This document shows, piece after piece, positions 6,897 to 54,166 of a DNA stretch of 64,000 nucleotides; the first letter of the stretch is position 1, and each line of letters opens with the position of its first letter. This DNA is from an uncultured Candidatus Babeliaceae bacterium (GTDB lineage Bacteria; Babelota; Babeliae; Babelales; Babelaceae): positions 1,152,001 through 1,216,000 of the forward strand of contig OY969927.1 of the NCBI GenBank assembly GCA_963704655.1, read 5' to 3'. The translations under genes were made by a program, and so were the position numbers. The notes beneath the pieces are model-generated. The model was not told the origin of the DNA, did not search any database, and was given only the letters and a program-made list of their open reading frames with translations.

Positions 6897-7559
6897 ATGA
6901 AGATTTTTTTGGATACCGCTGATTATAAAAAGATTGCCGAATGCGCGCAAACAGGTTTAGTTGATGGCGTTACGATAAACCCAAGTTTGCTTAAAGTTCA
7001 AAATGAGCCACCACTTAAAATTGTGCGTGAAATTTTGCGTGTGCTACCTGAGGCTGAAATAAATTTGCAGGTAACAGAACAAGAGCCTCATAAAGTGTAT
7101 GAACAGGCAAAACATATTGCACATTTGGCAGAAAATATGCTTGTGAAAGTACCGTGCCATAAAATGTACCTTCCCGTTATTGCGCAACTTATCCAAGAAG
7201 ATATCCCAGTGAATGTCACCCTTGTTTTCAGTTTAAGTCAGGCGCTTGAAATGGCAAAACTTGGCGTAAATTATATCTCTGTTTTTATTGGCAGATTATA
7301 TGACAATGGCGTTGATGGCCTTGAAGTTGCAGCAGCGGTACAAGAGATGCTTGATACTTATGGCTTTGAATCTGAGCTTTTAGTTGCCTCTGTGCGCACC
7401 AAAGAACAGGTCGAAGGCGCTATTATGCTTGGCGCAGACGCTATAACTATGCCTGTAGATGTCTTTAATCAGCTTGCAGAACACCCACTTTCTGACGCTG
7501 GCCTTAAAAAATTTGCCGACGATTGGCAAAATGGGCCACACAAGCTACTATTGGAGTAG
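6897..7559 (+). CDS. tal: Transaldolase / fructose-6-phosphate aldolase family
   Basis: MKIFLDTAD, GVTINPSL, VKVP, NVTLVFS, LVASVR. Confidence 0.9.
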   Translation: MKIFLDTADYKKIAECAQTGLVDGVTINPSLLKVQNEPPLKIVREILRVLPEAEINLQVTEQEPHKVYEQAKHIAHLAENMLVKVPCHKMYLPVIAQLIQEDIPVNVTLVFSLSQALEMAKLGVNYISVFIGRLYDNGVDGLEVAAAVQEMLDTYGFESELLVASVRTKEQVEGAIMLGADAITMPVDVFNQLAEHPLSDAGLKKFADDWQNGPHKLLLE

Positions 7560-7634: not shown

Positions 7635-8216
7635 ATGTCATTTATTAAACAATTTTTAATGGTAAGCGCTCTGGTAGCGGCTATTTCTATGCCGAACCGT
7701 GCATATGCCCGCCAGATGGACATATCTGTTGGCGATTCTATAATTTATGCTGGTGTTACAGCTGTTTGCGCCTATATAATTTATTCTTGGGCTACGCAGG
7801 AAACAGGATCTGCTCTAACTACTCCTGCTTTAACTACTGATGATGATATGTATGGGGCCGTTCTTGAGACGTTTAAACAGGGCTCTGAAGACCCTTACGA
7901 AGATCATCTTGATCAAGTTTTACGTGAGGACGGGTATCGAATTTACGTTAAGGAAGATCAAGATAAAATGGTTGAATTTTTTGAAGCCATGAGAAACTTT
8001 ATTGATCCGATAAAAGATCTTCCATCTAAAGAACAATTTCATGATCAAATTGATGCTTTAGCGATAGAGCTTGAAGCAGAGTTGTTAATAAGCCGGGATA
8101 ATATCAATATTGATGCAAGAAATTCATTTGGTGCACGTGCTGCGCGAGCATCTTATTATGCGGACCATTTTAATGAAATTATTCGGCAAGCGGCATTACA
8201 GCCAATTGTTAATTAA
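7635..8216 (+). CDS. Hypothetical membrane/secreted protein, paralog of 8341..8943
   Basis: Signal peptide plus TM segment; LREDGYRIYVKED vs LRRNNYQVFLKED. Confidence 0.75.
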   Translation: MSFIKQFLMVSALVAAISMPNRAYARQMDISVGDSIIYAGVTAVCAYIIYSWATQETGSALTTPALTTDDDMYGAVLETFKQGSEDPYEDHLDQVLREDGYRIYVKEDQDKMVEFFEAMRNFIDPIKDLPSKEQFHDQIDALAIELEAELLISRDNINIDARNSFGARAARASYYADHFNEIIRQAALQPIVN

Positions 8217-8221
8217 AGATT

Positions 8222-8249
8222 AAGGCGGTGGTTTCACCGCCTTTTTTTT
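8222..8249 (+). terminator. Intrinsic terminator
   Basis: AAGGCGGTG-GTTT-CACCGCCTT followed by T tract. Confidence 0.85.
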
Positions 8250-8340
8250 GTAGTAATTTGCTTGAATGTTTTACTATAGTTTATTTATCTTTATACTATC
8301 TGATAAATAAATTTATATTCAACAAAAAAGGCTACATTTT

Positions 8341-8943
8341 ATGAATAAAAAATATTTTTTATGTGCACTAACTTTATCTGCAACATTAACTCCCATTTTT
8401 GCTCCTTCATCTAATGGTTCTTCTGATGGAAGGGCTCCTACTTTTACAGAAACTGTAAGTGCGTTTGCGGTATTCGGGGCGCTTTATTATGCGCTGTTTG
8501 GTGGTGAAGCGCCAAGAAAAGAGCAGCCAATGCCTCAAGCGCCTAAACCCATTATTACTGATCGTCGTCAGGAAAAATTAACACAAAGAATTTTAGATGT
8601 TTTTTCTAAAGGCGAAAAAAATGCGCTTGAAGGGTATATTTCAGAAAACTTACGCCGCAACAATTATCAAGTTTTCTTAAAAGAAGACAAAAAGGATATT
8701 GAAACATTATTTCGCGATGTGGAAGGTTTTGTAAGAGAGAAAATTCCTTGCTCAAATCAACGTGAGTATGTGGCAAAAAGAGTAAGAGTTTTAAGAGATG
8801 ATTTTAGAAAAGATTATGAGCTAAGCGCTTATAAAGATATCGACAGAGAACTTATCAGATGGGGCGCAGGCGTCATTAGACCAGATTCTTATGTGAGTAT
8901 ATTGTTAGATATCTTAAAGCAAGCTGAAACTATTGTCTGCTAA
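8341..8943 (+). CDS. Hypothetical membrane/secreted protein, paralog of 7635..8216
   Basis: Same architecture; shared C-terminal GA..R..Y...II.QA pattern. Confidence 0.75.
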   Translation: MNKKYFLCALTLSATLTPIFAPSSNGSSDGRAPTFTETVSAFAVFGALYYALFGGEAPRKEQPMPQAPKPIITDRRQEKLTQRILDVFSKGEKNALEGYISENLRRNNYQVFLKEDKKDIETLFRDVEGFVREKIPCSNQREYVAKRVRVLRDDFRKDYELSAYKDIDRELIRWGAGVIRPDSYVSILLDILKQAETIVC

Positions 8944-8959
8944 AAAAATAGTCGTTGTT

Positions 8960-9760
8960 ATGTATAAAAAAATCTTCTTGAAAATCATATTTTTTATAAT
9001 TATCTTAAGTGGCTTGCAGCCCAAGCCACTTAAAGCAGATGATGGTGCTGTTGTGGTAGTTGCTGGCATTGCCGCTTTTGTAGGTGCAACATGCATAGGC
9101 TATAAGGCATGGCAGCTGTATACATCGTACACACAAGAGCGTACTTTTTTAAAAGCAAAAGAGCTTTTAAAAAAATCTGTTTTTTGGGGAAATTCAGAAA
9201 CTGTTTATTCTGCTAATGGCAAAGAGATTATCAATCATATAAATGAATTAGCACTGCAGGGATATAAACCCGCTTTATATTTCCAAGCAGAGCACCCATG
9301 GCTTTTTGTAGATAGCATTATTTCTGAATTTGCGCCTAATATTTCACAACCTATTTTTTACGCGCGCTATGCACGTTTTAGCATCGAAAAATATAAACAG
9401 CTTGCTGCTCTTGGCGATATTCATTGCTATTTTAATGCGGGTAATTTAGGTATTGCCTGGCTCTATATTAAATATCATCATGGCGTTGATTATGCCCAAA
9501 TTTCAGGCGAAATCGATGAATATTTAGGCTATCTTGATACTGCAGCATGCTTAGGCCATCAAGGTGCCGTAAATGAAATTGTTCGAATTTACCAAGAAGG
9601 GCTTTTGGTAAAATATAATCAGCGTTTGATAGCTGAAATTCCTGGATATTATGAAGCAATTCAAAAGATGAGTGATTCTATCTATCCAATTTCTAACTTG
9701 AGAATATGGCTCTTTAAAAACTATTATAGTTTTTTGCAACTTTCACCGGTGGCGTCTTAA
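8960..9760 (+). CDS. Hypothetical protein with Sel1-like helical repeats
   Basis: Signal peptide plus TM; ALQGYKPA, AALGDIH and AACLGHQGA resemble Sel1 repeat ends. Confidence 0.6.
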   Translation: MYKKIFLKIIFFIIILSGLQPKPLKADDGAVVVVAGIAAFVGATCIGYKAWQLYTSYTQERTFLKAKELLKKSVFWGNSETVYSANGKEIINHINELALQGYKPALYFQAEHPWLFVDSIISEFAPNISQPIFYARYARFSIEKYKQLAALGDIHCYFNAGNLGIAWLYIKYHHGVDYAQISGEIDEYLGYLDTAACLGHQGAVNEIVRIYQEGLLVKYNQRLIAEIPGYYEAIQKMSDSIYPISNLRIWLFKNYYSFLQLSPVAS

Positions 9761-9833
9761 TTCTTTTAAGCTTGATTGATTAAGTAATATCGCTTACAAT
9801 TGCATATAAAATTATTAACATTAAAGGCTTTTT

Positions 9834-10163
9834 ATGAAAAAAATAGTATTAATTATTTCTGCTTTATCGTTTTTTTCACAGCAGCTATGTGCAATTGGTG
9901 AAGATTTACATCAAGTCTTATATGCGTTTTTTCAGGACAATAAGCTGGACGAGTCTTCGTTTATAGATCCTGTGAAGTTCGAACTAGATGTTGAATCAGA
10001 TAATGATTTAGAGAGCCATATGACTCAAAATGAACGGATGCACGATGTTCTTGATGCGTTGCTTAATGGTTCTCAATCAGATGAACTAGAGGATGAAGAT
10101 GATATAGGCGGGATGCAAATGGTAGCTCCTTGGCCATTGCTATATCTTTTGGGTTATTATTGA
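9834..10163 (+). CDS. Secreted acidic hypothetical protein
   Basis: MKK signal peptide; upstream region duplicated before 10268. Confidence 0.7.
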   Translation: MKKIVLIISALSFFSQQLCAIGEDLHQVLYAFFQDNKLDESSFIDPVKFELDVESDNDLESHMTQNERMHDVLDALLNGSQSDELEDEDDIGGMQMVAPWPLLYLLGYY

Positions 10164-10267
10164 GAATTTTCGTTATTGGATCACAGGGCGAATTTAAAGA
10201 TAAAAGCTTGATTAATTCGATGATATCGCCTATAATCACATAAAAACTATTACAAAAAAGGCATTTT

Positions 10268-10696
10268 ATGAAAAAAATAGCACTCATTATTTTCGCTTTA
10301 TTAGCATTTTCTAATTATTCATTATCAGCAATGGATGCAAAAAAAGAAAGTGCTTCTATGGAAAGTGTGGGGACTTTTTCAGGGGCTTTAAAAGTTTTGA
10401 CCGCATTTGATCAATTTATGGATAACCAAATGAGCAAAGAACTTGGGGCAATATCTAATGCGTCTACTGTTGTTGCACGTGGCATCAATGCTGCCCAAAA
10501 AGAGGTTATTATTGTTCCTTTTGGTCAGGATTTTATTAAAGAATTAACTGAAACATGCGATCAACCTTATACCCGTGAACAAATACAAAAAATTATGAAA
10601 TCAGAAACTTCAGCAGTTTATGCACTTGGTTTTGCGCAAGCGATAAGGCTTATAGCAAAAGTTCAAGAACAGCGTGAAGCTTCAGATGATAAATAA
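10268..10696 (+). CDS. Secreted hypothetical protein
   Basis: Signal peptide ending LSA|MDA. Confidence 0.75.
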   Translation: MKKIALIIFALLAFSNYSLSAMDAKKESASMESVGTFSGALKVLTAFDQFMDNQMSKELGAISNASTVVARGINAAQKEVIIVPFGQDFIKELTETCDQPYTREQIQKIMKSETSAVYALGFAQAIRLIAKVQEQREASDDK

Positions 10697-10764: not shown

Positions 10765-12744
10765 ATGACTATTTTTAAGCTACATTCCCCGTTTCCTGTT
10801 TCGGGCGATCAACCCAAGGCTATCGAAAAACTTGTTGAATCTAGGCCCGGTAAATCCACTCTTTTGGGGGTAACCGGCTCAGGTAAGACCTTTACTATGG
10901 CGCATGTCATAGCTCAGCAGAGTAAGCCGGTTTTGATTTTATCGCCTAATAAAACGTTAGCAGCGCAACTGTATGAAGAGTTTTCGCTCTTTTTCCCAGA
11001 AAATAAAGTCTGTTATTTTGTCAGTTATTATGACTATTACCAGCCAGAGTCGTACCTGCCAGCGCAGGATATTTACATCCCAAAAGAGACAAAAATTAAC
11101 TCAGAAATTGAGCGCTTACGCATAGAGGCCGCTGCCAGCATGATTAATAGGCAAGATACGATAGTTATTGCCTCTGTTTCATGTATATATTCTTTGGGTA
11201 ATCCTGCAGATTATAAAAATTTAGCTTTTTCGCTTTCATTAAATCAAGAGATAACGCGTGGTGAGCTTATAAAAAGGCTTATCTTTATACAATATGCTAG
11301 AAACGATATGGAAAAAAGCTCTGGAACTTTTCAAGTGCAGGGTGATGTTATAGAGGTTAATTTACCCTATCAAAAAGAAAAATTACGCATCGAAATGTAC
11401 GGCAGCTTTATTCAACGCCTTTCGTGGGTTACAAAACATGAAAATAGGGTGGTAAGCGAGCTTGATAACACCTTAATTTTTCCTGCAAAATATTTTGTTA
11501 CTACTCAAGAAAAAAAGGACGCTGCGCTTGCAAGTATAAAAGCTGAGCTTGAAGAGTATGCACCAACATTAAAAAACCCAATCTATAAAGAACGAATAAA
11601 AGCACGCGTAACGCATGATATGGAGCTTTTAAAAGAGCGTGGATTCTGTCCGGGCATTGAAAATTATTCGGTGCATTTTGATGGCAGATATTCTGGGCAG
11701 GCACCGTTTTGTTTATTCGATTTCTTTCCTGAATTTCTATTAATGATCGATGAATCACACGTTGCCATTCCGCAATTGCGTGGTATGTATGCTGGTGACC
11801 GTGCACGTAAATCGTCACTTATTGAATATGGTTTTAGGTTACCAAGCGCGTTTGATAACAGGCCGTTACAATTTTCTGAAATCGAAAAATATTTTAACGA
11901 TGTAATATTCGTTTCTGCGACTCCTGGCGATTATGAGATGCAAAAAAGTGATAACATAGTCGAGCAGATTATTCGTCCAACGGGCCTTATTGATCCTGTT
12001 GTTGAAGTGCACAAGCGCGAGGGCCAAATTTCTGATCTTATTAAAGAAGTTAAAGACACGCGTGAACGCGGGCTCCGTACATTAATTACGGTACTTACTA
12101 AAAAATTAGCCGAAGAGTTTGCGCATTATCTTGAAGAGCAGCAGATTAAAGTATGTTACTTACATTCAGATATTAAAACCCCAGAACGAACTGAGATTTT
12201 ACATAAATTACGCCAAGGCGTTTTTGATTGTTTGGTTGGGGTTAACTTGCTTCGTGAAGGGCTCGATCTTCCTGAAGTTGCACTTGTTGCCATTATGGAC
12301 GCTGATGTTGAAAGTTTTTTACGCGATAAACGTTCGTTAATTCAGACTATTGGCCGTGCTGCACGAAACAGTGAATCAAAAGTTATTTTATATGCAGACA
12401 AGATCACCAATTCTATGCAAAATGCTATGGATGAAACGGCCCGTCGCCGCATCTTGCAACAAGCATATAATAAAAAACATGGCATTACTCCGACTACGGT
12501 GCAACGAGAAGTTACCAAGAGTATTTCGCCTATTCAAAAGGCTATTATCGAAGCGCGTAAGGGCAAAAAGAAAACCTCCACTGCGCAAGAGGCTGGGAAA
12601 TATACTTCAGCTGATGTTCAAAAACAGATTCTTGATCTTGAAGCACAAATGCAACATGCTGCTGAAAACTTCAACTTTGAAGAAGCTATTGCACTTCGAG
12701 AGCAATGGATGCAATTAAAAGCACTTCTAAAAGACAGCTTCTAA
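10765..12744 (+). CDS. uvrB: Excinuclease ABC subunit B
   Basis: GVTGSGKT, YYDYYQPE, DESH, NLLREGLDLPEV, QTIGRAARN, C-terminal UVR domain. Confidence 0.98.
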   Translation: MTIFKLHSPFPVSGDQPKAIEKLVESRPGKSTLLGVTGSGKTFTMAHVIAQQSKPVLILSPNKTLAAQLYEEFSLFFPENKVCYFVSYYDYYQPESYLPAQDIYIPKETKINSEIERLRIEAAASMINRQDTIVIASVSCIYSLGNPADYKNLAFSLSLNQEITRGELIKRLIFIQYARNDMEKSSGTFQVQGDVIEVNLPYQKEKLRIEMYGSFIQRLSWVTKHENRVVSELDNTLIFPAKYFVTTQEKKDAALASIKAELEEYAPTLKNPIYKERIKARVTHDMELLKERGFCPGIENYSVHFDGRYSGQAPFCLFDFFPEFLLMIDESHVAIPQLRGMYAGDRARKSSLIEYGFRLPSAFDNRPLQFSEIEKYFNDVIFVSATPGDYEMQKSDNIVEQIIRPTGLIDPVVEVHKREGQISDLIKEVKDTRERGLRTLITVLTKKLAEEFAHYLEEQQIKVCYLHSDIKTPERTEILHKLRQGVFDCLVGVNLLREGLDLPEVALVAIMDADVESFLRDKRSLIQTIGRAARNSESKVILYADKITNSMQNAMDETARRRILQQAYNKKHGITPTTVQREVTKSISPIQKAIIEARKGKKKTSTAQEAGKYTSADVQKQILDLEAQMQHAAENFNFEEAIALREQWMQLKALLKDSF

Positions 12745-12750
12745 CTGATA

Positions 12751-12867
12751 CTTCGATAAAACTCAGTACTAAAGACTCGCTCATCCTGACACTTCGTCAA
12801 GCTCAGCGCTAAAGGCCCTGCCTGCCCGCCGTAGCCTTGGCGTAGGCTGGGTCGAAGGGTTAGCGAG
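12751..12867. repeat. Nested cluster of palindromic repeat units
   Basis: CTTCGATAAAACTCAG and CTTCGTCAAGCTCAG units; outer CTCGCTCATCCTGA..TCGAAGGGTTAGCGAG; inner CCGCCGTAGCCTTGGCGTAGGCTGG. Confidence 0.7.
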
Positions 12868-13040
12868 ATTCAGGATCCATCTCATAATAATTCATAATTT
12901 GCGGCTTGCTGCCGAACCGCCTTGGGGATTTTGTGATAAAACCCCCAAGACCCCCGATCATCCTGCCGGAGGCCGGTCGCTTCAATTCACTCGGCATGGC
13001 ACAAAAGTGCCGGGCCTCGGTCAGAGAAGCTCCTCGACTT

Positions 13041-13706
13041 TTATTTTATAGATAAATTCAGTTCACTATTTATAAATTGATCAATGGGCCAATAACCCAT
13101 AGCTCTACTATTATTAGCGAGTATCTCGCGGGTTTTAACCGGCAGGCAATGCGTAACCGTTGAAAAATATTGTGGCACGCTGACAAGCGGGGCATTGTAT
13201 AATGCATTGAGAACTTCAAAATTAACTGGGGCTGCACTTTTATCATACATTCCAAGTAATCTTACATGGCTTTCAAACCCACATGTGGTCAAATAAGGGG
13301 ATGAATTTTGAGTAAGCGTAAAGCTCTCATTTTTGGCAATGGTATGAGAGACGTAGCCAACAATTCTATTATTAATAGTCGCTTTGAGTTGTAGTCTGTT
13401 ATTTTTTTCTTTGAATTCTTCTTGGAACATTCTCCCTATAATTTTTTTTGCTGTAGATTCATCTGGTTTATCCGGAAATATTTTGAACAGGTTTATAAAA
13501 ATTTCTTGTGCGGCGGTTATATCGTTTTCTGAGTTAACGTAATCTATGGTATAAGTTCCATATCCAGTTTTTATAGTAGTAGGTAATGGTTTTTTATCTC
13601 TAAAAAAGGGATTCTTGCCCCAATCAGCACTCATGCTCTGCATGCCATGCAAATAGACGTTGCAAGTAGATAGTATAATTAATAATAGTATTTTAATGTT
13701 AGTCAT
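13041..13706 (-). CDS. Secreted hypothetical protein, possibly a degenerate GNAT-like fold; homolog of 14804..15400
   Basis: Shared MTNIKILLLII, YTID, LQLKA..N..IVGY.SH, GYWP. Confidence 0.7.
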   Translation of the reverse strand: MTNIKILLLIILSTCNVYLHGMQSMSADWGKNPFFRDKKPLPTTIKTGYGTYTIDYVNSENDITAAQEIFINLFKIFPDKPDESTAKKIIGRMFQEEFKEKNNRLQLKATINNRIVGYVSHTIAKNESFTLTQNSSPYLTTCGFESHVRLLGMYDKSAAPVNFEVLNALYNAPLVSVPQYFSTVTHCLPVKTREILANNSRAMGYWPIDQFINSELNLSIK

Positions 13707-13789
13707 AAATGTGTCCCTAATTTTGCCACTTTTTAATTTTTATGGTTATCGTAATAATTACTTAATGATAACATATTTTGGGAGTGGTT

Positions 13790-13873
13790 ATGAAAAATTT
13801 TAAAATAATTGTCTTTATTACGGGTTTATTGCCCGCTATATGCTACGTATATCAGATCCAAAGAGTCTTATAA
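13790..13873 (+). pseudogene. Truncated 5' duplicate of the M3 peptidase gene
   Basis: MKNFKIIVFITGLLPAICYVYQIQRVL-stop vs MKNFKIIVFLVGLLPTAWYVYQIQGKL at 15479. Confidence 0.75.
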
Positions 13874-13883
13874 ACTCACTTTT

Positions 13884-14018
13884 GCTGATGTGCAAAAACA
13901 GATTCTTGACCTTGGAGCACAGATGCAACTCGCTGCTGAAAGCTTTAACTTTGAAGAGGCTATTGCACTTCGAGAGCAGTGGATGCAATTAAAGGCGTTA
14001 CTAAAGGATAGTTTTTAG
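13884..14018 (+). pseudogene. Displaced duplicate of the uvrB 3' end (UVR domain)
   Basis: 45-codon match to 12610-12744. Confidence 0.9.
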
Positions 14019-14116
14019 TTATTGTTTTTTTAATATTAATTTTTTTCATTTATTGCTATATTATAATATAGTACTATATAAAATAGTGGCGTTTCTTAAT
14101 TTTGATAAGGTATTTT

Positions 14117-14485
14117 GTGAAAAAATGGCAAATCGAATATTGAGATGAGGGAAAGAATAAAAATTCTATCGAGAAGTGGCTTGATAAGCTAACCAAGGAG
14201 CAGCTCAAATCAGTCGCCAAAGAATTGCGAATGCTAGAGGAGATTGGAAACGAGCTAAGGCTACCTCATAGCAAGGCTTTGGGTGATGGTTTGTTTGAAT
14301 TGCCAGAGCGGCGACATGGATATCGTATTTATTATGGATTTAATGGTAAGAGTCTAATTATTTTGCTTGCTGCTGGGGATAAAACAAGTCAAGAAAGAGA
14401 TATAAAAATAGCTCGTGAAAGATTAACAAAAAATATAAGGATTGGGGACCATTATGAAAACAAAAAGCTTCCAGAAATACCTTGA
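14117..14485 (+). pseudogene. RelE/HigB-like toxin with an in-frame stop
   Basis: GTG start; KKWQIEY then TGA at 14141-14143; frame continues to LRLPHSKALGDGLFEL..GYRIYY..LLAAGDKTSQERDI. Confidence 0.8.
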
Positions 14486-14765
14486 ACAGCGTCTTAATAA
14501 AGATGAAATCGCTGAAATTGAAGAGCAAGCAAAACTTGAAGTTAAAATTTTAACTTCAATACAACAATTAATTTCGAGCGCTATGGAAGAATATATGGAA
14601 AAAAATAACATTGGTTTTAATGAGCTTGTTAGGCGCCTTGACTCAAGTCCAGCTCATGTTGCAAAAATTAGACGTGGTGAAGCAAATTTGACTCTGTCGA
14701 GCTTGGCACATCTTTTTGCTGCGCTTGGAAAAGAGCCACAAGAAGTCTTTAAAGGCAGAAAATAA
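14454..14765 (+). CDS. XRE-family HTH antitoxin (HigA-like)
   Basis: Overlaps the toxin 3' end; HTH with RGEANLTLSSL. Confidence 0.8.
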   Translation: MKTKSFQKYLEQRLNKDEIAEIEEQAKLEVKILTSIQQLISSAMEEYMEKNNIGFNELVRRLDSSPAHVAKIRRGEANLTLSSLAHLFAALGKEPQEVFKGRK

Positions 14766-14803
14766 ACTGATTCAGTTTGCTTTGGTTAGTGTGCGAGGGT
14801 AAG

Positions 14804-15400
14804 TTAATTCGCGAGTTCTTCAAATTCACTAAGCGGCCAATAACCAATAGTATCTTCACCAGCTTCGATTGGAGCAATGTTATCCGCCAGTCGGCTCTCG
14901 GTAATGGAGTTATTTTTTATAAAGTTTTTTGGGGCAAGTTTCAGATATTGAAAAATTTGCTCATAATCATAAGCATTTTTATCGCATACCATTAATTTTA
15001 AAAGACTTTTGTGTTTTATTCTAGCGTTGTGTTTAGAGGTTAAATCATCTTTTACGATTACATGGGAAGCATAGCCAACAATAGTACCATTTAAGCTAGC
15101 TTTTAATTGCAGAGTTATTTGGGTTTCCAGTGAGCTGCTTGCAAGTGTTTCTAATTCATTTTTAAACATTAAATAAATGGGTATGTCCAGCTCACCGGTT
15201 TTTATTTGGGCTTCTAAGATTTCTTGTGCTTTAACTATATCGCCACTTTCAGCGCGATCTATAGTATATATTCGGTCTTCAACTCCAAAATGCCAGGGGA
15301 ATGGCGTAATTTTCGTTAAAAAACTGTTCTGATTCATCCCATAAACGCACATATTGCAAGCAGATATGATAATTAATAATAGTATTTTAATATTAGTCAT
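14804..15400 (-). CDS. Secreted hypothetical protein, homolog of 13041..13706
   Basis: Near-identical signal peptide and promoter; shared motifs. Confidence 0.7.
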   Translation of the reverse strand: MTNIKILLLIIISACNMCVYGMNQNSFLTKITPFPWHFGVEDRIYTIDRAESGDIVKAQEILEAQIKTGELDIPIYLMFKNELETLASSSLETQITLQLKASLNGTIVGYASHVIVKDDLTSKHNARIKHKSLLKLMVCDKNAYDYEQIFQYLKLAPKNFIKNNSITESRLADNIAPIEAGEDTIGYWPLSEFEELAN

Positions 15401-15478
15401 AAATATGTCCCTAATTTTGCCACTTTTTAATTTTTATGGTTATCTTACTATGTTAAGAATAACATATTTGGAGTGGGT

Positions 15479-17575
15479 ATGAAAAATTTTAAAATTATTG
15501 TCTTTTTGGTCGGGTTACTGCCCACCGCATGGTACGTGTACCAAATTCAAGGAAAACTTATGGCACATTTAAATACAAAAACTGTTCTTGATCTTATCGC
15601 GAAGCCTGATGACGCATTGGCGATTTTTCCAAAAACAACACAAAAGATGCAAGAACTTGCCCAAGAAATTAAAAAGTTAACCTTAGAGCGCGTTGATGCC
15701 ATTAAAGTAATTCCTGCTGCTGAGCGTACGTTTGATAATACCGTTCGTGCAGGTGATAGTATGAATGCAGATATTGAAAAAGGGATGTCTTTGCTTCACA
15801 TGTGCCAGATGGTTTATCCAGACAAAGAGCTACGTGAAACGGCAGAAAAATTAATACTAGAATTGCAAAACTTTATTGTTGATAATCTCACCTTAAATAA
15901 AGATCTCTATAATGCCTTTATGGAGTACGTTAACGGCAATAAAGCCCAGGAAACACTCAACTCAGAAGAAGAGTTTTACATCTCAGAATCGTTAAAAAGT
16001 TTTAAACGTTCTGGATATGATCTTCCAGACGAGCAGCAGGCAGAATTAAAAAGATTACAAAAGGAGCTTGCAGAATTAACTCAACTTTTTAATGTTAATA
16101 TCGCCAAAGACGTTCGCTTTATTACCGTTTCACGGCAAGATCTTCAAGGGTTAACCGATGAACAAGTTGCGCCTTATTTAGATGAACTTTCTGGAAAATA
16201 TATTCTCAAAACAGATTACCCGACTGTGGATCTGGTGCTGCAAAATTGTACGCTTGAATCAACTAGAAAAGCATTGTGGGTGGAGTTTAATAACCGTGCG
16301 CATCCAAACAATAATGAAATTCTTAAAAAAGTTATTAAAATTCGTCACCAGATAGCAGAGCTTCTAGGCTACCCATCATATACGTACTGCAATCTTGATG
16401 ATAGCATGGCCCAATCACCAGAGCGTGTTCAAAACTTTTTAAAAGAATTAGAAACTCGTTCAACAGCAAAAGCGCAACAAGAGTTTGAAGAGCTTGTTCG
16501 CCAATTGCCAGAAGGTATCACATTAACTGCAGATGGCAAGTTAAAACCATGGGATGCGCGTTATGTTATGTATCAATACAAAAAACAGCATGCGGCTATT
16601 GATGAACGCGCTATTGCAGAATATTTCCCTCTTGAAAAAACTATCGACGTTTTATTAGAACTCTATGAAGAGTTTTTAGGTTTACGTTTTGAACAGCTTC
16701 CTGCACAAGGTCTTTGGCACTCAGATGTTAAGCTTATTAAAGCGACTCAAGATGACAAACTTTTAGGCTATCTCTTTTTAGATTTGCACCCGCGGGACAA
16801 TAAATATACTCATGCATGTAACTTGAGTATTATTCATGGCTTGCACAACAAACAGGGTGATATCACTGTCCCTGTTGTGACAGTTGTTATTGCTAATTTC
16901 CCAAAATCTACCGGTGAAAAGCCAGCATTATTAATGCGCAGTGACGTCAACACATTTTTCCATGAGTTTGGCCATGCGGTGCATGCACTCTGTGGCATAA
17001 CCGAGCTTAATGCATTTTCCGGAACAAACGTAAAGCGTGATTTTGTAGAACTGCCATCGCAGATGTTAGAAGAATGGCTCTGGCAACCAGAGGTGTTAAA
17101 ACGTATTAGTGGCCACTATAAATCTGGCATTAAATTACATGATGAACTTATTGCAGCGATTATTAAAATAAAAAATCTTGATACTGGATTTTTCCTTAAG
17201 CGCCAAATATCTTTGGCCTATCTTTCACTTGCGTGCTTTAACGAGCACATTGATGATGATATGAAGCATGAATATCAACTTCTTTTTGAACGCTTAATGC
17301 CGTACCAAGACTATTGCCCAGAAGAGAATTTTATCTCATCATTTGGCCATTTAATGGGCTATGGTGCGCAATATTATGGCTATTTATGGTCAAAAGTTTT
17401 TGCATTAGATCTTTTTGATTACATTAAAGAACATGGGCTATCTGGTAAAGTCGGCGCACGTTACCGCGATTTAGTTATTGGTAAAGGTGGCAGCAAAGAC
17501 CCGTATGCATTATTAGTCGATTTTCTTGGCCGTGAACCGAATAGTGATGCGTTCTTTAAGGACATGGGGATATAA
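15479..17575 (+). CDS. M3 family metallopeptidase (thimet oligopeptidase-like)
   Basis: FFHEFGHAVH, RDFVELPSQMLE, FGHLMGYGAQYYGYLWS, FLGREPN. Confidence 0.95.
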   Translation: MKNFKIIVFLVGLLPTAWYVYQIQGKLMAHLNTKTVLDLIAKPDDALAIFPKTTQKMQELAQEIKKLTLERVDAIKVIPAAERTFDNTVRAGDSMNADIEKGMSLLHMCQMVYPDKELRETAEKLILELQNFIVDNLTLNKDLYNAFMEYVNGNKAQETLNSEEEFYISESLKSFKRSGYDLPDEQQAELKRLQKELAELTQLFNVNIAKDVRFITVSRQDLQGLTDEQVAPYLDELSGKYILKTDYPTVDLVLQNCTLESTRKALWVEFNNRAHPNNNEILKKVIKIRHQIAELLGYPSYTYCNLDDSMAQSPERVQNFLKELETRSTAKAQQEFEELVRQLPEGITLTADGKLKPWDARYVMYQYKKQHAAIDERAIAEYFPLEKTIDVLLELYEEFLGLRFEQLPAQGLWHSDVKLIKATQDDKLLGYLFLDLHPRDNKYTHACNLSIIHGLHNKQGDITVPVVTVVIANFPKSTGEKPALLMRSDVNTFFHEFGHAVHALCGITELNAFSGTNVKRDFVELPSQMLEEWLWQPEVLKRISGHYKSGIKLHDELIAAIIKIKNLDTGFFLKRQISLAYLSLACFNEHIDDDMKHEYQLLFERLMPYQDYCPEENFISSFGHLMGYGAQYYGYLWSKVFALDLFDYIKEHGLSGKVGARYRDLVIGKGGSKDPYALLVDFLGREPNSDAFFKDMGI

Positions 17576-19639: not shown

Positions 19640-19885
19640 ATGGCAAAAATGGCAAGAATAAGTGAAGATACCTCAAAGAAAATTGATGAGTTAGCTGAGT
19701 TATTAAGCGTTTCAAAGCAAAAAGTTATTGATATTGCTGTAAAATCTTATGAAAAAGAGCTTTTCTTTAAAAGATTAGATGCTGATTATGCTGCATTAAA
19801 AAAAGACGCAAAGGCATGGAAAGAGTTTCAGGATGAAATGGCTGAATGGGATGTAACTCTTCAAGATCGGCTTAATAATGAATAA
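19640..19885 (+). CDS. Antitoxin (RHH-like) of a MazF/PemK module
   Basis: RBS AGAAAGGTG; ends EMAEWDVTLQD; overlaps toxin start. Confidence 0.8.
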   Translation: MAKMARISEDTSKKIDELAELLSVSKQKVIDIAVKSYEKELFFKRLDADYAALKKDAKAWKEFQDEMAEWDVTLQDRLNNE

Positions 19886-20252
19886 AATGATCTCAAAAAA
19901 TCAAAAAAATTTAATTCAGCAAAGAGATATTTTGTTTGTAGATCTTGATCCTGTTGTGGGCCATGAACAAGCAAAAAAGAGGCCCTGCCTTGTTTTATCC
20001 CCAAATAAATTCAATGCAACAAAATCAGATTTAGTTGTTATTTTGCCTATAACTTCAACTTTTAGGGATATCATGACTTTTGTCACAATAGAACCTACAA
20101 AAAGTGGACTTTCAAAAACTTCTTATGTGATTACTGACCAAATTCGTTCTGTTTCGAAACAAAGAATATGTGGTACTGTCATAGGCCAGCTTGATCAATT
20201 CACTTTTCAAAAAATTCAACATATTGTAAAAATGCTTCTAGATCTTGATTAA
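19878..20252 (+). CDS. MazF/PemK family toxin
   Basis: VDLDPVVGHEQAKKRPCLVLS, LPITS, DQIRSVSKQR. Confidence 0.92.
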   Translation: MNKMISKNQKNLIQQRDILFVDLDPVVGHEQAKKRPCLVLSPNKFNATKSDLVVILPITSTFRDIMTFVTIEPTKSGLSKTSYVITDQIRSVSKQRICGTVIGQLDQFTFQKIQHIVKMLLDLD

Positions 20253-20748: not shown

Positions 20749-21462
20749 CTACTCAACATCTTCAGCTTCTTCAGATTCTTCTTTCTGAACAAAAGCTTTA
20801 GCCTGTTTAATCTGAGCAGCACGTATTGCAGCTTTAACTTTAGGATCATTCATTCTCTCTGGAGATATGAATACTGCGTCTTGCGGAACTTGTGGTGCAT
20901 TTTCTGTACCAGCACCTTGTCCCTCTTCAACTGGGACATTATTGTAATTATTAATTACGGTAGTATCGCCGCCATCGCCTTGGTTTGAAATGCCATAAGC
21001 AAGCGCAATAGTAAGAGGTAAATACAGACCAAAGCCCCAAAGACCCCAGCCCCATCCGCCCCAACCAGCACCCCAATAGCCAAAACCACCACGGTTCCAA
21101 CCATGGCCGTAATAACCATGATGACCAAATCCGCGACCAGCAGCGCCTCTATGAGCACCGGCTGCACCCTTATGTGCACCAGCGGCACCGTGACCAGCAC
21201 GAGCTGCAGAAGCTCTGCCTGCTCCAGATCTAGAAGCTGCATGTGAGGCTGCTGGACGTGAAGCTGCTCGAGCGCCGCCGCCAGAAAAGCCTCTTCCGCC
21301 GCCGCTAAAACCGCGTCCGCCACCGCCACCAAATCCACGGCCTCCGCCGCCACCCATGTGACCGCCTCCGCCGCCTCCGCCACCGCGACTATACAGATAC
21401 GTAAGATCAGCAGATACTATAAGCAGTGCGCTTATGAGTAAAAATAAACTTTGTTTTTTCAT
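20749..21462 (-). CDS. Secreted/membrane Gly-Arg-Ala-rich low-complexity protein
   Basis: Signal peptide; GGGGRGF repeats; GW-rich segment and a TM segment. Confidence 0.75.
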   Translation of the reverse strand: MKKQSLFLLISALLIVSADLTYLYSRGGGGGGGGHMGGGGGRGFGGGGGRGFSGGGRGFSGGGARAASRPAASHAASRSGAGRASAARAGHGAAGAHKGAAGAHRGAAGRGFGHHGYYGHGWNRGGFGYWGAGWGGWGWGLWGFGLYLPLTIALAYGISNQGDGGDTTVINNYNNVPVEEGQGAGTENAPQVPQDAVFISPERMNDPKVKAAIRAAQIKQAKAFVQKEESEEAEDVE

Positions 21463-21675
21463 GACTACTCCTTTTTTATTATTCATTATTTAGTTCTATA
21501 CTTAGATTTTATCTTTTTTGGTATGCAAAATGCAATAGTTTTGGTATTTTTTATTAAAAAGCTCATCTAGATCGTGATATTTTAGGTTGGTAACTTCTTG
21601 CCTTTTTTGTGTGCAAAAATTAGACTAAATTATGCAAAAAAACCTTTTAATCTCTATAACCTTAAGGAGTTTTTT

Positions 21676-32704: not shown

Positions 32705-34681
32705 TTATTCTTCATCACCATCTTCTTCTAATGCTTCTTCAGCAGTAAATTCATATTCTTTATCAAAGAACGTTTGTAACGATTTGCTACGTGAAGGGTG
32801 GCGCAATTTACGCAACGCTTTCACTTCAATTTGTCGAATACGTTCACGAGTTACGCCAAAATCTTTACCTACTTCTTCAAGAGTATGTTCAGATGCAACG
32901 TCAATGCCAAAGCGCATTTTAAGTACTTTTTCTTCTCGTGGCGTTAATGTTTTGAGCACCTCGCGAACACGTTCTTTTAAGTCGCTATTTGCAACGGTGT
33001 CAGCAGGTGAAAAATCATTTTCATTTTCGATAAAATCTTTGATAAATGCATCTTCACTATCGCCAACTGGAGTTTCAAATGAAATCGGCTCTTTAGAGAT
33101 CTTGATGATATTTTTAATCTTTTTCTCATCAATATTTAGTTCTTTTGCAAGCTCGGCATGGGTCGGTTCACGACCATGTTCTTGAATGAAGGTGCGTTTA
33201 ATTTTATTAATCTTATTAAGTGTTTCAACCATATGAACCGGTACACGAATTGTACGTGATTGGTCCGCAATTGCACGGGTGATTGCTTGGCGGATCCACC
33301 AGGTTGCATAGGTAGAAAATTTATATCCACGTTCAAATTCAAATTTTTCAACCGCTTTCAGTAAGACCGATATTACCTTCTTGAATCAGATCAAGAAATG
33401 TAATCCACGGTTTACATATTTTTTAGCGATATTAACGACAAGACGTAAGTTTGCATGCGCGAGATTATCTTTTGCACGTTTATCTTTTGTCTGACAATCC
33501 ATAAGCTTTTTAAAGAGCTGTACGATTTTATCGTATGGTAAGCCAACTTCATGTTCGATCTTTTTGACACTTTTTTGTGCAGCGCGCATGGTAGATTCAA
33601 CTTCTAGCAGCTGTTCTTTTTGATCCGCATCAAGATTTTTTTGCGCGGTTAATTCGGCAATCTCTTGTTTACATTGTTGACCAAGTAGGTTCTTTTCATC
33701 AATTTTTGCAAGGGCTTTTTCGATGCGCTTAACTAATTTGCGAATTAATTTGTTAGAAAATTTAATAGATTGGATCTTTTTACTGATCTCTTCTTTATTT
33801 TTCTTAACTTCATTTAACATCGCTTTTTTTTGAGCTTCAGTCTCTAGCTTGCCGCGATAACTGCGGTAAATCTTCTCTTCGTTGTCTATAAGTTGCTGAA
33901 TTTCAGTAATCTTTTTTAAAAGATTCTCTTTTTCTTCTTCATATTTTGGTAAATTTTCTTCACCGAATTCAGAAAACTGAATAATATCTTTTAGTGTTGA
34001 ATTGTCTTTGCTTAATTTTTCGCCAATAGCGATCAGTTCTTTGTGAATAAAGGGAAACTTCGAAAGTGCCTCAATGCTATCACTTTTACATGACGCTATT
34101 TGTTCAGCAATAACAGTTTCTGTTTTTTTATTCAAAAGTGGTATCTTGCCAATGTCGCGTAAGTAGCATTTAACACCATCAGGCATATAGCTTGATTCAG
34201 CCGCCTCTTTAATGGTATCATCAGCTTCTGGGTCATCCTCAGAAGCCTCGGATGCATCTTCGTCCTCTTCGGCAAAATCAAAGGTGCTTTCAAGGTCACC
34301 GGTGAATTTACGCGTAGCGGTAGTTGTCTCATCTTGAGCAAACTCTTCTAATTCTGCACCGGCTTCGAGCTCATCGTGCATTAAAAGTTCTATATTTTCA
34401 CGTTCAATAGTTTTTAAAAGGTCACTGATCTCTTGTTCAGTAAAGTTATTTGCTTCAGCAAAATCCATTACCTCTTCGTAAGTTAAGACATTGGTGCGTC
34501 TGCCCTTATCAAGAAGACCTTCGGTAAGTTCTTGTTTAAGATCAAGCTCGCGGTTGCCTGTAGGAGCAACAACAGTTTTTGGGCTGCTTTTTGTTGCGCT
34601 TTGACGCACTATTTTAGCTGCTGGCTTAGCAGAAGTTGGCGCTTTTGGTGCGCTTTTGCGCACTACTTTACTTGTCGTCAT
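32705..34681 (-). CDS. rpoD: RNA polymerase sigma factor RpoD, interrupted by two compensating indels in region 2
   Basis: [44 protein letters not shown]; one missing base at about 33396-33398 and one extra base at 33361. Confidence 0.93.
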
Positions 34682-39832: not shown

Positions 39833-39857
39833 AAATTACATTTCTAAATTTGGCCGC

Positions 39858-39950
39858 ATGGATTCGACTACGCTCACCACGAGCGGCCTTTAACCCGTGC
39901 ACCCTGAGTGCCCGAAGTAGCGTTAACGCGAAGACGGGTGTATCGAAGGG
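39858..39950. repeat. Inverted dimer of the palindromic repeat; overlaps the mnmG stop codon
   Basis: 93 nt; near copy of 40245-40337. Confidence 0.9.
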
Positions 39951-41869
39951 GCGGCACTAATATTATTTAACTGTTCGCGGCACTTAAAAATCAAAAGGGA
40001 AATTGCTGCAGGCGTCATGCCCTGAATAAGAGCCGCTTGTGCAATGGTTGCCGGTTTTGTTTTTGCAAGTTTTTGCCGTAGTTCAATAGATAACCCAGAA
40101 ATGTCGCTGTAGTCAAGCATTTCTGGAATAATAAGCTCTTTATAATGCTGCATCTTTTCAATCTCACGCTGTTCACGGTGCAAATAGGGCCCATATAAAA
40201 GCTCAGCAAAAATCGACGCCCGTGCGCGTGATGTTAATGCCGCTATGGATTCGACTTCGCTCACCACGAGCGGCCCATTTAACCGTGCACCCTGAGTGTC
40301 CGACGAAGCTTTTAGCAAAGACGGATGTATCGAAGGGTCATATAATCGATCAATAGCTTCATATGCATATGCGCTATCGCCGGTGCCAAGTTTTTGAATA
40401 ATCGTAATATATTCTTTATGTGCTTTTATGCTGTCTGTAACTGCGATAACTGTGTTGTTTTCTGCTTCGATTGCATCATGCATCTCTTTTGATATCAAAT
40501 TAAGTGCATAGGCGCGCTTGTGAAAACGCTTAAAGACATTGTCCTGACGCAGCACAAGGCGACGTTCAGCGCGTGAAGTAAACATGCGATACGGTTCATC
40601 TGCGCCATGTGTGACAAGATCATCGATCATAATGCCGATATAACTTTCATTGCGGTCAAGTACAAATGGTTCTTGATTATGCGCTTTTAAATGCGCATTA
40701 ATGCCCGCAACAATACCTTGACCAGCAGCTTCTTCATAGCCCGTGGTGCCATTAATTTGGCCAGCTAAAAAGAGGCCAGGAACCTTTTTAAGTTCAAGTG
40801 TGTGATGTAACTCTTTTGGTGAAACATAATCATACTCAATAGCATACCCTGGACGTGCTATTTCAACATTTTCAAAACCTTTAATGGTGCGTAAAAATTC
40901 AAGCTGAACCGGTAATGGCAACGATGTTGAAAGGCCATTTGGATAGACTTCATCGCTGCTTGCGCTTTCTGGTTCAACAAAGATATGGTGCGCATCTTTA
41001 TGCGCAAAGCGTGAAATTTTGTCTTCGATAGACGGGCAATAACGTGGCGGTGTGCCCTTAATGTGCCCCGTATAAATAGGTGAATGGTGCCAATTTTTTC
41101 TGATGGCATCATGGGTGTTTTTATTAGTATATGTTACAAAACAGTCCATTTTATGGGTAACTTTATGGGGCGTAAACTCAAAAAGTGCATCAAGTTCGTC
41201 TGACCCTTGGCGCTCCATCTGCGAAAAATCAATACTAGAGCGTATTAATCTTGCAGGTGTTCCTGTTTTGAGCCTGCCCATCGTAAGATTTAAGCTTTTT
41301 AAAAATGCAGGTAAACCTACTGAAGCCTCTTCTGCCTGGCGGCCACCAGAGTAATTAACCTGGCCGGTATGAATTAAGCCATTTAAAAACGTCCCAGTTG
41401 TCAAAATAACCGCTTTTGAGGTGTAAGATGAGCCTTCACGAGTAACTATGCCTATAACCGATCCTTGTTCGTTTAAAAGGCATTTTTCCACCATGGCCAT
41501 ATAGATAGTTAGGTTCGGGGTAGCTTGTAAGTATTTTTGGCTTAATTTATTATATTCAACTTTATCGATCTGGAGCCTTAATCCCTGAACCGCTGGCCCT
41601 TTGCTGGTATTCAGCATTCTGGCCTGAAGATAGGTTTGGGTGCATAATTGTGGCATTAATCCGCCAAGAGCGCTGATCTCAAAGACAATGTGCCCTTTGC
41701 CTATTCCGCCAATGGCAGGATTACAGGGCATATGGCCTATTTTGTCTCTGTTTAGCGTTATAAGCAGGGTTTTTGAGCCCATTCTGGCGGCTGCATACGC
41801 AGCTTCGTTACCAGCATGCCCGGCACCAACGACAATAACGTCAAAATCGAAGTGTTGTGTGTTATTCAT
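39923..41869 (-). CDS. mnmG: tRNA uridine-5-carboxymethylaminomethyl modification enzyme MnmG (GidA)
   Basis: [55 protein letters not shown]. Confidence 0.98.
40245..40337. repeat. Inverted dimer of the palindromic repeat, in frame inside mnmG
   Basis: 93 nt (31 codons); encodes [31 protein letters not shown]. Confidence 0.9.
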
Positions 41870-54042: not shown

Positions 54043-54058
54043 ACTCTATTTCCAATGT

Positions 54059-54166
54059 CCGCATGGTTCGACTCCGCTCACCACGAGCGGCCAGTCCCGC
54101 TTACAAATTTCTTGTTCTCTCCCTTCCGCTCACACTGAGCGGAGGCTGAAAGCCGAAGTCGAAGTG
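54059..54166. repeat. Inverted dimer of the palindromic repeat inside the ABC operon
   Basis: ATGGTTCGACTCCGCTCACCACGAGCGG and CCGCTCACACTGAGCGGAGGCTGAAAGCCGAAGTCGAAGTG. Confidence 0.85.

Follow-up and report, generated by a model that had tools for sequence, protein, structure and literature searches.

In the window analysed here, a stretch of 64,000 nucleotides from an uncultured Candidatus Babeliaceae bacterium (GenBank assembly GCA_963704655.1, contig OY969927.1, positions 1,152,001 to 1,216,000), the end of uvrB and the beginning of the neighbouring M3 peptidase gene each occur twice. The question that this locus raises is how a second, incomplete piece of each of these two genes came to lie in the middle of the region that separates them. 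Our data indicate that two diverged haplotypes of a variable hotspot were probably concatenated in tandem by recombination with DNA from another lineage. The two incomplete pieces, an orphan uvrB tail and a 24-codon M3 stub, are likely to be non-functional scars that keep the codon pattern of the working genes to which they once belonged.

An earlier note on this DNA had read the order of parts as uvrB end, gene A, promoter, M3 start, uvrB end, toxin-antitoxin (TA) pair, gene A', promoter and M3 peptidase gene. The open reading frames (ORFs) of the window and a profile search place every part of the locus at the position given in that note and confirm the order. The locus can be read as two units. 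Unit 1 would consist of a uvrB tail, a GC-rich spacer, gene A, the M3 promoter and the M3 start, and unit 2 of a uvrB tail, a HigB-like TA pair, gene A', the M3 promoter and the M3 gene. Relatives were collected with the M3 peptidase as query, which gave 47 loci, the best five with 69-77% protein identity (Babeliaceae, Dependentiae or metagenome-assembled genomes, MAGs). They are referred to by number, and L002 represents the nearest other species. The features of the locus are as follows, in the numbering of the window.

10765-12744, plus strand: intact uvrB (659 aa), with Pfam UvrB, UvrB_inter, Helicase_C and UVR domains
12586-12744, plus strand: tail1, the repeated 3' end of the intact uvrB, 52 codons and TAA, an ungapped match to 13860-14018
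12745-13040: left part of cargo unit 1, a 296-nt GC-rich spacer that separates the convergent genes uvrB and A
13041-13706, minus strand: gene A, coding for an orphan protein of 221 aa with a hydrophobic N-terminus
13660-13756: high-identity island, left copy, which spans the left half of the A-M3 intergenic region and the ~15 codons at the 5' end of A
13707-13789: A-M3 intergenic 'promoter', copy 1 (83 nt)
13757-13861, plus strand: right half of promoter copy 1 and the truncated M3 start (L002-like piece)
13790-13873, plus strand: truncated M3 ORF of 27 codons and TAA, with ATG at 13790; 24 codons are M3 homology
13860-13861: illegitimate joint of M3 (~codon 24) to uvrB (codon -52), where the two overlap by 2 nt (AA), from comparison with the L002 M3 start and L002 uvrB
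13860-14018, plus strand: orphan uvrB tail, 52 codons and TAG, recognised as Pfam UVR
14117-14485, plus strand: RelE/ParE-type (Gp49/HigB-like) toxin gene with an in-frame TGA at 14141-14143
14454-14765, plus strand: helix-turn-helix (HTH) antitoxin gene, whose start overlaps the toxin gene's end
14804-15400, minus strand: gene A', coding for 198 aa, a distant homologue of A
15354-15450: high-identity island, right copy
15401-15478: A'-M3 intergenic 'promoter', copy 2
15451-17575, plus strand: right half of promoter copy 2 and the full M3 peptidase gene, with ATG at 15479

The protein of the intact uvrB is 93% identical to that of L005 and 89% identical to those of L001 and L003. The full M3 peptidase (15479-17575) matches Pfam Peptidase_M3 with E 8.6e-112.

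Origin of the second uvrB tail and the M3 stub

The orphan tail is longer than first described. The earlier note had let it begin at 13884, and we place its start at 13860 because positions 13860-13867 (AAAGAGTC) equal the L002 uvrB, which reads AAAGAGTC-GGGC-AAACTTACT where the window reads AAAGAGTC-TTAT-AAACTCACT. Positions 13862-13872 had initially been taken as decayed M3, an assignment that was rejected when the L002 uvrB sequence identified them as uvrB.

In the last 44 codons, tail1 and the orphan tail differ at 18 nucleotides, which change 13 codons synonymously and three non-synonymously (E>G, H>L and N>S), and the stop codon is TAA in one and TAG in the other; the hand count in the earlier note was exact. 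By the Nei-Gojobori method, the proportion of synonymous differences (pS) is 0.556, the synonymous divergence (dS) 1.02 and the ratio of non-synonymous to synonymous divergence (omega) 0.038. Intact uvrB genes of different species show the same pattern over their whole length, with dS 0.97 and omega 0.040 between the window and L002, and dS 1.65 and omega 0.030 between the window and L005. This match bears out the earlier claim that the two tails diverged as working uvrB in separate lineages. Over the full 52 codons the orphan differs from tail1 by 13 synonymous and eight non-synonymous changes and has no premature stop. Five of these eight fall in an 8-codon linker, which varies among intact uvrB genes too, and in the first eight codons of the tail the orphan (KESYKLTF) is nearer to L002 (KESGKLTA) than to tail1 (QEAGKYTS).

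The earlier note had also argued that a duplicate decaying in place would not produce such a bias. In simulations of in-place decay, one copy was constrained and the other neutral, under three mutation settings. As few non-synonymous codons as observed were reached in 0 of 4000 runs for the 44 codons and in 0 of 3000 runs for the 52 codons, in each of the three settings, and in the 52-codon simulations 70-82% of the neutral copies gained a premature stop, whereas the real orphan has none. The model with one neutral copy is rejected by these simulations. In its codon pattern the orphan tail resembles the 3' end of a functional uvrB whose lineage is roughly as distant as another species representative.

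The M3 stub gives a second line of evidence. Its first 72 nucleotides are 93% identical to the L002 M3 gene and 76% identical to the window's own M3, which is itself 75% identical to L002 over the stub region. The full M3 of the window and that of L002 are 77% identical in amino acids and 74% in nucleotides, with at most 85% in every 150-nt window. At the informative sites of 13757-13861, unit 1 agrees with L002 at 18, the two units agree with each other at five and unit 2 agrees with L002 at two (binomial p 0.011 for the grouping and 0.0004 for the relative rate). After an in-place duplication, a pseudogene copy cannot be the slower-evolving copy. The M3 stub appears to be at least as clearly foreign as the orphan tail. 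Nucleotides 1-400 of the M3 gene show an excess of sites unique to the window (p 0.001).

These observations bear directly on the possibility of an in-place tandem duplication that ran from the uvrB tail as far as the M3 start and was followed by divergence, decay and partial gene conversion. The topology, with the end of one unit joined to the start of the next, is exactly that of a tandem duplication, the two tails are each other's nearest in a tree (80/83), and the 97-nt island common to both units could be a gene-conversion tract. But the omega and dS of the tails are incompatible with one neutral copy, and the stub is nearer to the M3 of another species than to its sister copy. The functional copy would need 18 changes against two in the pseudogene copy. 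The cargo differs as well, with a spacer in one unit and a TA pair in the other and with 28% identity between A and A', and gene conversion would have removed the synonymous differences too. We give an origin by duplication in place very little credence.

Both relics carry changes at conserved positions. In the orphan tail, the E>G change hits a Glu kept in tail1 and in the tails of five of five relatives, and in the stub TGG>TGC (W>C) affects a Trp kept in all six intact M3 starts compared; these changes reflect relaxed constraint in the scars. The UVR domain of the orphan tail is nevertheless recognised (PF02151, E 1.8e-5, 24.7 bits against a cut-off of 21.5). The tail might instead be kept by selection as a UVR-domain mini-protein expressed from the duplicated M3 promoter, and in that case its low non-synonymous divergence (dN) would be uninformative on its origin. 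In addition to the domain match, the frame is open from 13809 to 14018 (69 codons), an intact copy of the M3 promoter, ribosome-binding site and start lies upstream, and a GGAG created by the E>G change stands 5 nt ahead of an internal ATG (13923-13925). However, the joint-spanning 69-codon ORF was not found in the protein collection by a word-based search of proteins of 37-121 aa, translation from the internal ATG would cost the domain half of its first UVR helix, and 31 relatives all lack a second uvrB tail. Selection on a peptide would also leave the L002-like stub and the dS of 1 unexplained. A selected mini-protein is therefore very improbable.

A search of the 31 relatives found neither a second uvrB tail nor a second M3 start. 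Four blastn matches to the flank relics in these genomes were rejected as other short repeats or low-complexity sequence. In the L002 locus itself, tblastn reads uvrB (7961-9922) in three overlapping frames, which indicates that the uvrB of this MAG is frameshifted.

The stub resembles L002, but the greater part of the orphan tail does not. Either the donor or L002 itself must therefore be mosaic at this place, as would be expected beside a hotspot. This difference between the stub and the adjoining tail would also fit a mosaic built in several steps, in which the two cargo units came from separate events or lineages and the stub and the tail from different donors. A local excess of L002-like sites exists in uvrB nucleotides 1601-1800 as well, where sites at which the window agrees with L002 number 26, against 4 and 7 (Fisher 0.0015, uncorrected, 10 windows). 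Cargo at this gap turns over fast, and TA modules differ between the sister loci L001 and L003. Such a mosaic needs more events than one joint and one crossover, and the first eight codons of the tail are L002-like, which would allow a single L002-related donor with a mosaic tail. We consider the multi-step origin quite unlikely.

The joint, the shared island and possible routes

The M3 homology of the stub stops at 13861, and the last codons of the 27-codon ORF are uvrB read out of frame. At this point the parental M3 and uvrB sequences overlap by AA alone. In the tandem concatenation that we favour, one end of the event would be this illegitimate joint, at which M3 codon ~24 was fused to uvrB codon -52 (13860-13861).

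The same joint speaks to the possibility of an assembly artefact, in which two co-occurring populations, one with A as cargo and the other with the TA pair and A', were strung into a false tandem. The relatives are all MAGs, so the window is probably from a MAG too, at least one indel-type defect is found in the essential gene rpoD, and exact runs of 23 and 39 nt common to both units could tangle an assembly graph. With an M3/uvrB overlap of 2 nt, however, no shared k-mer could have made the joint, and it must exist in the reads because the parents share no k-mer there. A graph error at the 39-mer would swap alleles and would not stack a truncated M3 and a truncated uvrB. The W>C and E>G changes at invariant residues fit real relics, not working haplotypes, and the divergence from L002 and from L005 is alike on both sides of the joint. 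An artefact is unlikely on these grounds.

The other end of the concatenation most likely would have been a homologous exchange in the 97-nt island that both units have in common, which covers the 5' end of A or A' and the left half of the promoter. The two copies of the island are identical at 90 of 97 nt (93%), with the exact runs mentioned above, and the left copy includes a TTGCCA hexamer that resembles a -35 element. Identity falls to 77% to the right of the island and to about 34-57% to the left, where the genes are barely alignable. Homologous recombination between the two haplotypes appears plausible nowhere but in the island, which may be where they crossed over or else a tract of later conversion.

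We infer that a single event joined the two haplotypes, and two routes could have led to it. The first is homology-facilitated illegitimate recombination (HFIR), in which linear DNA would be held by a homologous anchor on one side and an illegitimate end on the other. With the anchor in uvrB, the 3' part of the intact uvrB, gene A and the stub would be foreign and the orphan tail native; an anchor in M3 would reverse the assignment of foreign and native parts. In the second route, a donor segment would have been closed into a circle at the M3/uvrB joint and inserted by a single crossover in the island, and the foreign DNA would then comprise the stub and orphan tail together with the TA pair and the body of A'. 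In either case the donor lineage would be about as divergent at synonymous sites as a different species. A circular donor with one crossover and linear HFIR fit equally well. The earlier note had favoured HFIR, and the joint with its 2-nt overlap fits that proposal, but the breakpoint that was expected inside uvrB is not significant in comparison with L002 (maximum chi-square p 0.14).

This breakpoint result is one of several that weigh against the concatenation that we favour. A phylogeny of the tails, suggested in the earlier note, was run by maximum likelihood on these very short pieces and made the two tails each other's nearest, a grouping that at a support of 80/83 is weak, as are trees of short pieces in general. 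The orphan tail shares 10 sites with L002 and tail1 shares 17. The clade of the stub and L002 has a support of just 75/86 by maximum likelihood, again for a short piece, and the approximately unbiased (AU) test does not reject a clade of the stub and the full M3 (p 0.18). Neither single haplotype, uvrB-A-M3 or uvrB-TA-A'-M3, was found in any genome, and the double frameshift in rpoD may be an assembly indel problem elsewhere in the same window.

The uvrB-M3 gap among relatives and its cargo

The adjacency of uvrB and M3 is kept in 32 of the 47 loci, with gaps of -14 to 6877 bp. The gap measures 75 bp in L002 and L005 and 41 bp in L004, all of which have no gene A, and it holds inserts of 462 bp in L003 and 976 bp in L001. 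We scanned 50 ORFs from the gaps, after seven overlapping ones of 57 had been dropped; Pfam families were recognised in 18 and none in the other 32. Parts of TA systems are found in the gaps of five loci, namely MazF in L001, HepT/NTase_sub_bind in L003, L020 and L028, in the last of which it is accompanied by an MNT partner, and AbiEii in L035. Other families include parts of ABC transporters, ankyrin, LRR, WD40 and DUF1622. The uvrB-M3 gap is a variable-cargo hotspot of Babeliales (Dependentiae), because the flanks are conserved while the content of the gap varies among relatives. In L024, a 5.2-kb gap cargo is flanked by copies of a short element (2505-2580 and 7435-7462), one just past the uvrB stop and the other ~250 nt before M3. 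In the window, a PemK/MazF toxin gene (E 2.9e-26) lies at 19878-20249, 2.3 kb downstream of M3, and resembles the gap cargo of L024 and L001 by tblastn.

In the alignment, both units of the window are inserted precisely after the uvrB stop and ahead of the conserved M3 promoter. The earlier note had described a duplicated locus. In the nearest relatives uvrB and M3 lie 75 bp apart with no gene A between them, and both units are therefore cargo in a hotspot. The idea that two alleles were stacked side by side stands insofar as A and A' are true homologues, but since both are hotspot cargo the locus was not simply duplicated. A bolder proposal is that the gap serves as an integrase-free cassette-exchange site across Babeliales, which we regard as doubtful. 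Cargo would then move between lineages as DNA carrying pieces of both flanks, a mode of transfer for which we hold out little expectation. It is similarly a long shot that the joint is the closure scar of a circular intermediate that entered by a single crossover in the island of the A 5' end and promoter. The duplicated M3 promoter would in that case now drive the orphan tail and the TA operon, which is an equally speculative suggestion.

A and A' are 28-31% identical overall. Without the first 25 residues the identity is 28% with E 3e-10, and the two are true, distant homologues. Searches with A and A' were made with the translations of 13041-13703 and 14804-15397, start Met not included. 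In a library of 1.84 billion representatives, A had two matches only, A' (E 5.6e-8) and a protein with 93% identity (P0002), its sole close relative, which lies on a contig of 4758 bp. Word-based protein searches gave no further relatives of A or A', neither protein matched a family in Pfam or NCBIfam, and tblastn detected neither of them in any of the 47 loci. Both have hydrophobic N-termini with lipobox-like ends (...SAC and ...STC), and Lgt is encoded in the window. A and A' are probably exported proteins, as judged from the hydrophobic N-terminus read by eye only. A GNAT-like acetyltransferase was considered for A/A' but gained no Pfam or NCBIfam match, and an AlphaFold2 (AF2) model of A, from an alignment of three sequences, was unusable at a predicted local distance difference test (pLDDT) score of 33. 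Language-model neighbours at 0.90-0.91 were GNAT clusters for A and DUF1999, presumably a member of the acetyltransferase clan, for A'; these are weak leads.

The GC-rich spacer of unit 1 reaches up to 62% GC in a genome of ~37% GC and contains several hairpins, with a fold z-score of -1.84. By blastn it is not repeated in the window or in the loci, apart from one weak 37-nt match. Its motif GTCGAAGGGTTAGCGA is also present in the L001 insert, and two motif searches on the spacer found nothing beyond chance. The spacer motif GTCGAAGGGTT(A/G)GCGA recurs in L001, where the insert in the uvrB-M3 gap begins (L001 9025-9140).

The toxin of unit 2 belongs to Pfam Gp49 (PF05973, E 4.2e-13) and matches NCBIfam TIGR02683 with E 4e-15, below the cut-off of that model, and the antitoxin matches Pfam HTH_26 (PF13443, E 1.5e-5). 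The two genes overlap at 14454-14485, as in type II TA pairs with a Gp49-family toxin and an HTH antitoxin. The toxin frame is broken by the TGA at codon 9, and the antitoxin gene is intact; the module looks like one on the way to an orphan antitoxin. Plasmid collections gave a distant DNA match for this pair only, to a TA pair on a Pigmentibacter plasmid whose partner is annotated as a helix-turn-helix regulator, and phage collections gave no match for the locus.

No integrase or transposase was found among 30 further ORFs of the window or in the locus itself, and a search for tRNA and tmRNA genes found none. The whole window had no match in Rfam at the gathering threshold, and 12500-15700 had none at E<=1 either. 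Promoter and terminator scans gave counts not above those of shuffles.

Several other features of the window were recorded. The rpoD gene (~33230-33390, minus strand) is split into two ORFs with region 2 in another frame; region 2 lies between compensating 1-nt indels ~33 nt apart, which may be a real defect or assembly errors. Two neighbouring small genes (9834-10163 and 10268-10696) have signal-peptide-like starts, and their upstream DNA and first codons (9768-9867 and 10204-10301) are 80% identical, so that they repeat the pattern of A and A', with the 5' end in common and the body diverged. Direct repeats of 120-156 nt with 80% identity (41989-42136/43113-43261 and 44200-44330/44925-45043) fall between consecutive minus-strand genes of an array of small genes. 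A short GC-rich repeat is present in three copies that are 87-92% identical (39851-39950, 40236-40337 and 54054-54092). An island of 300 nt with up to 71% GC (21021-21341) lies inside an ORF without a Pfam family (20752-21486, minus strand).

Comparison with known systems and significance

HFIR has been described in Acinetobacter, Pseudomonas stutzeri and Streptococcus pneumoniae, where homology anchors one end of the incoming foreign DNA and the other end is joined with little or no homology (PMC3240628). This locus resembles it in having a joint with a 2-nt overlap and a high-identity stretch nearby, and in that the inserted DNA would come from a diverged lineage (dS 1.02, with the stub grouping with L002). 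A circular donor with one crossover yields an identical product, however. To our knowledge, transformation has not been reported for this organism.

In the effector-immunity arrays of type VI secretion (T6SS) in Vibrio cholerae and in Rhs 'C-terminal displacement', orphan arrays arise by displacement; HFIR was proposed for them and simple duplication was ruled out by the heterogeneity of the arrays (PMC5361080). The likeness is that an incoming diverged module is added beside the resident one and leaves orphaned gene ends. In those systems the 5' part of the toxin gene acts as the conserved anchor, and keeping the immunity gene provides a selective reason. Here, in contrast, the relics are pieces of the housekeeping flanks uvrB and M3, and there is no known benefit of keeping both A and A'. 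Displacement with orphan retention at T6SS effector-immunity and Rhs loci is the nearest described pattern.

Chromosomal integration hotspots have variable content flanked by conserved core genes. The locus is similar to them in its conserved uvrB and M3 flanks and in a gap with TA modules, repeat-protein genes and orphans, but no integrase, tRNA gene or att-like site was found at it. Ordinary tandem duplication has the same topology at the joint, whereas the copies here are not each other's products. In the literature searched, no work on this locus or on Babeliales recombination came up.

The locus is a clear but ordinary recombination footprint and adds a case, from a phylum that has been little studied, to a known kind of event; it reveals no new mechanism. 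It illustrates that a gene relic of 44-52 codons can be dated and sourced by its codon pattern. Dependentiae are known mainly from metagenomes, and their isolates infect protists. The locus provides direct sequence-level evidence that members of the Dependentiae exchange chromosomal DNA across approximately species-level distance (dS ~1), and that this exchange occurs at a conserved uvrB-M3 hotspot with turnover of TA modules and of orphan, probably exported, proteins.

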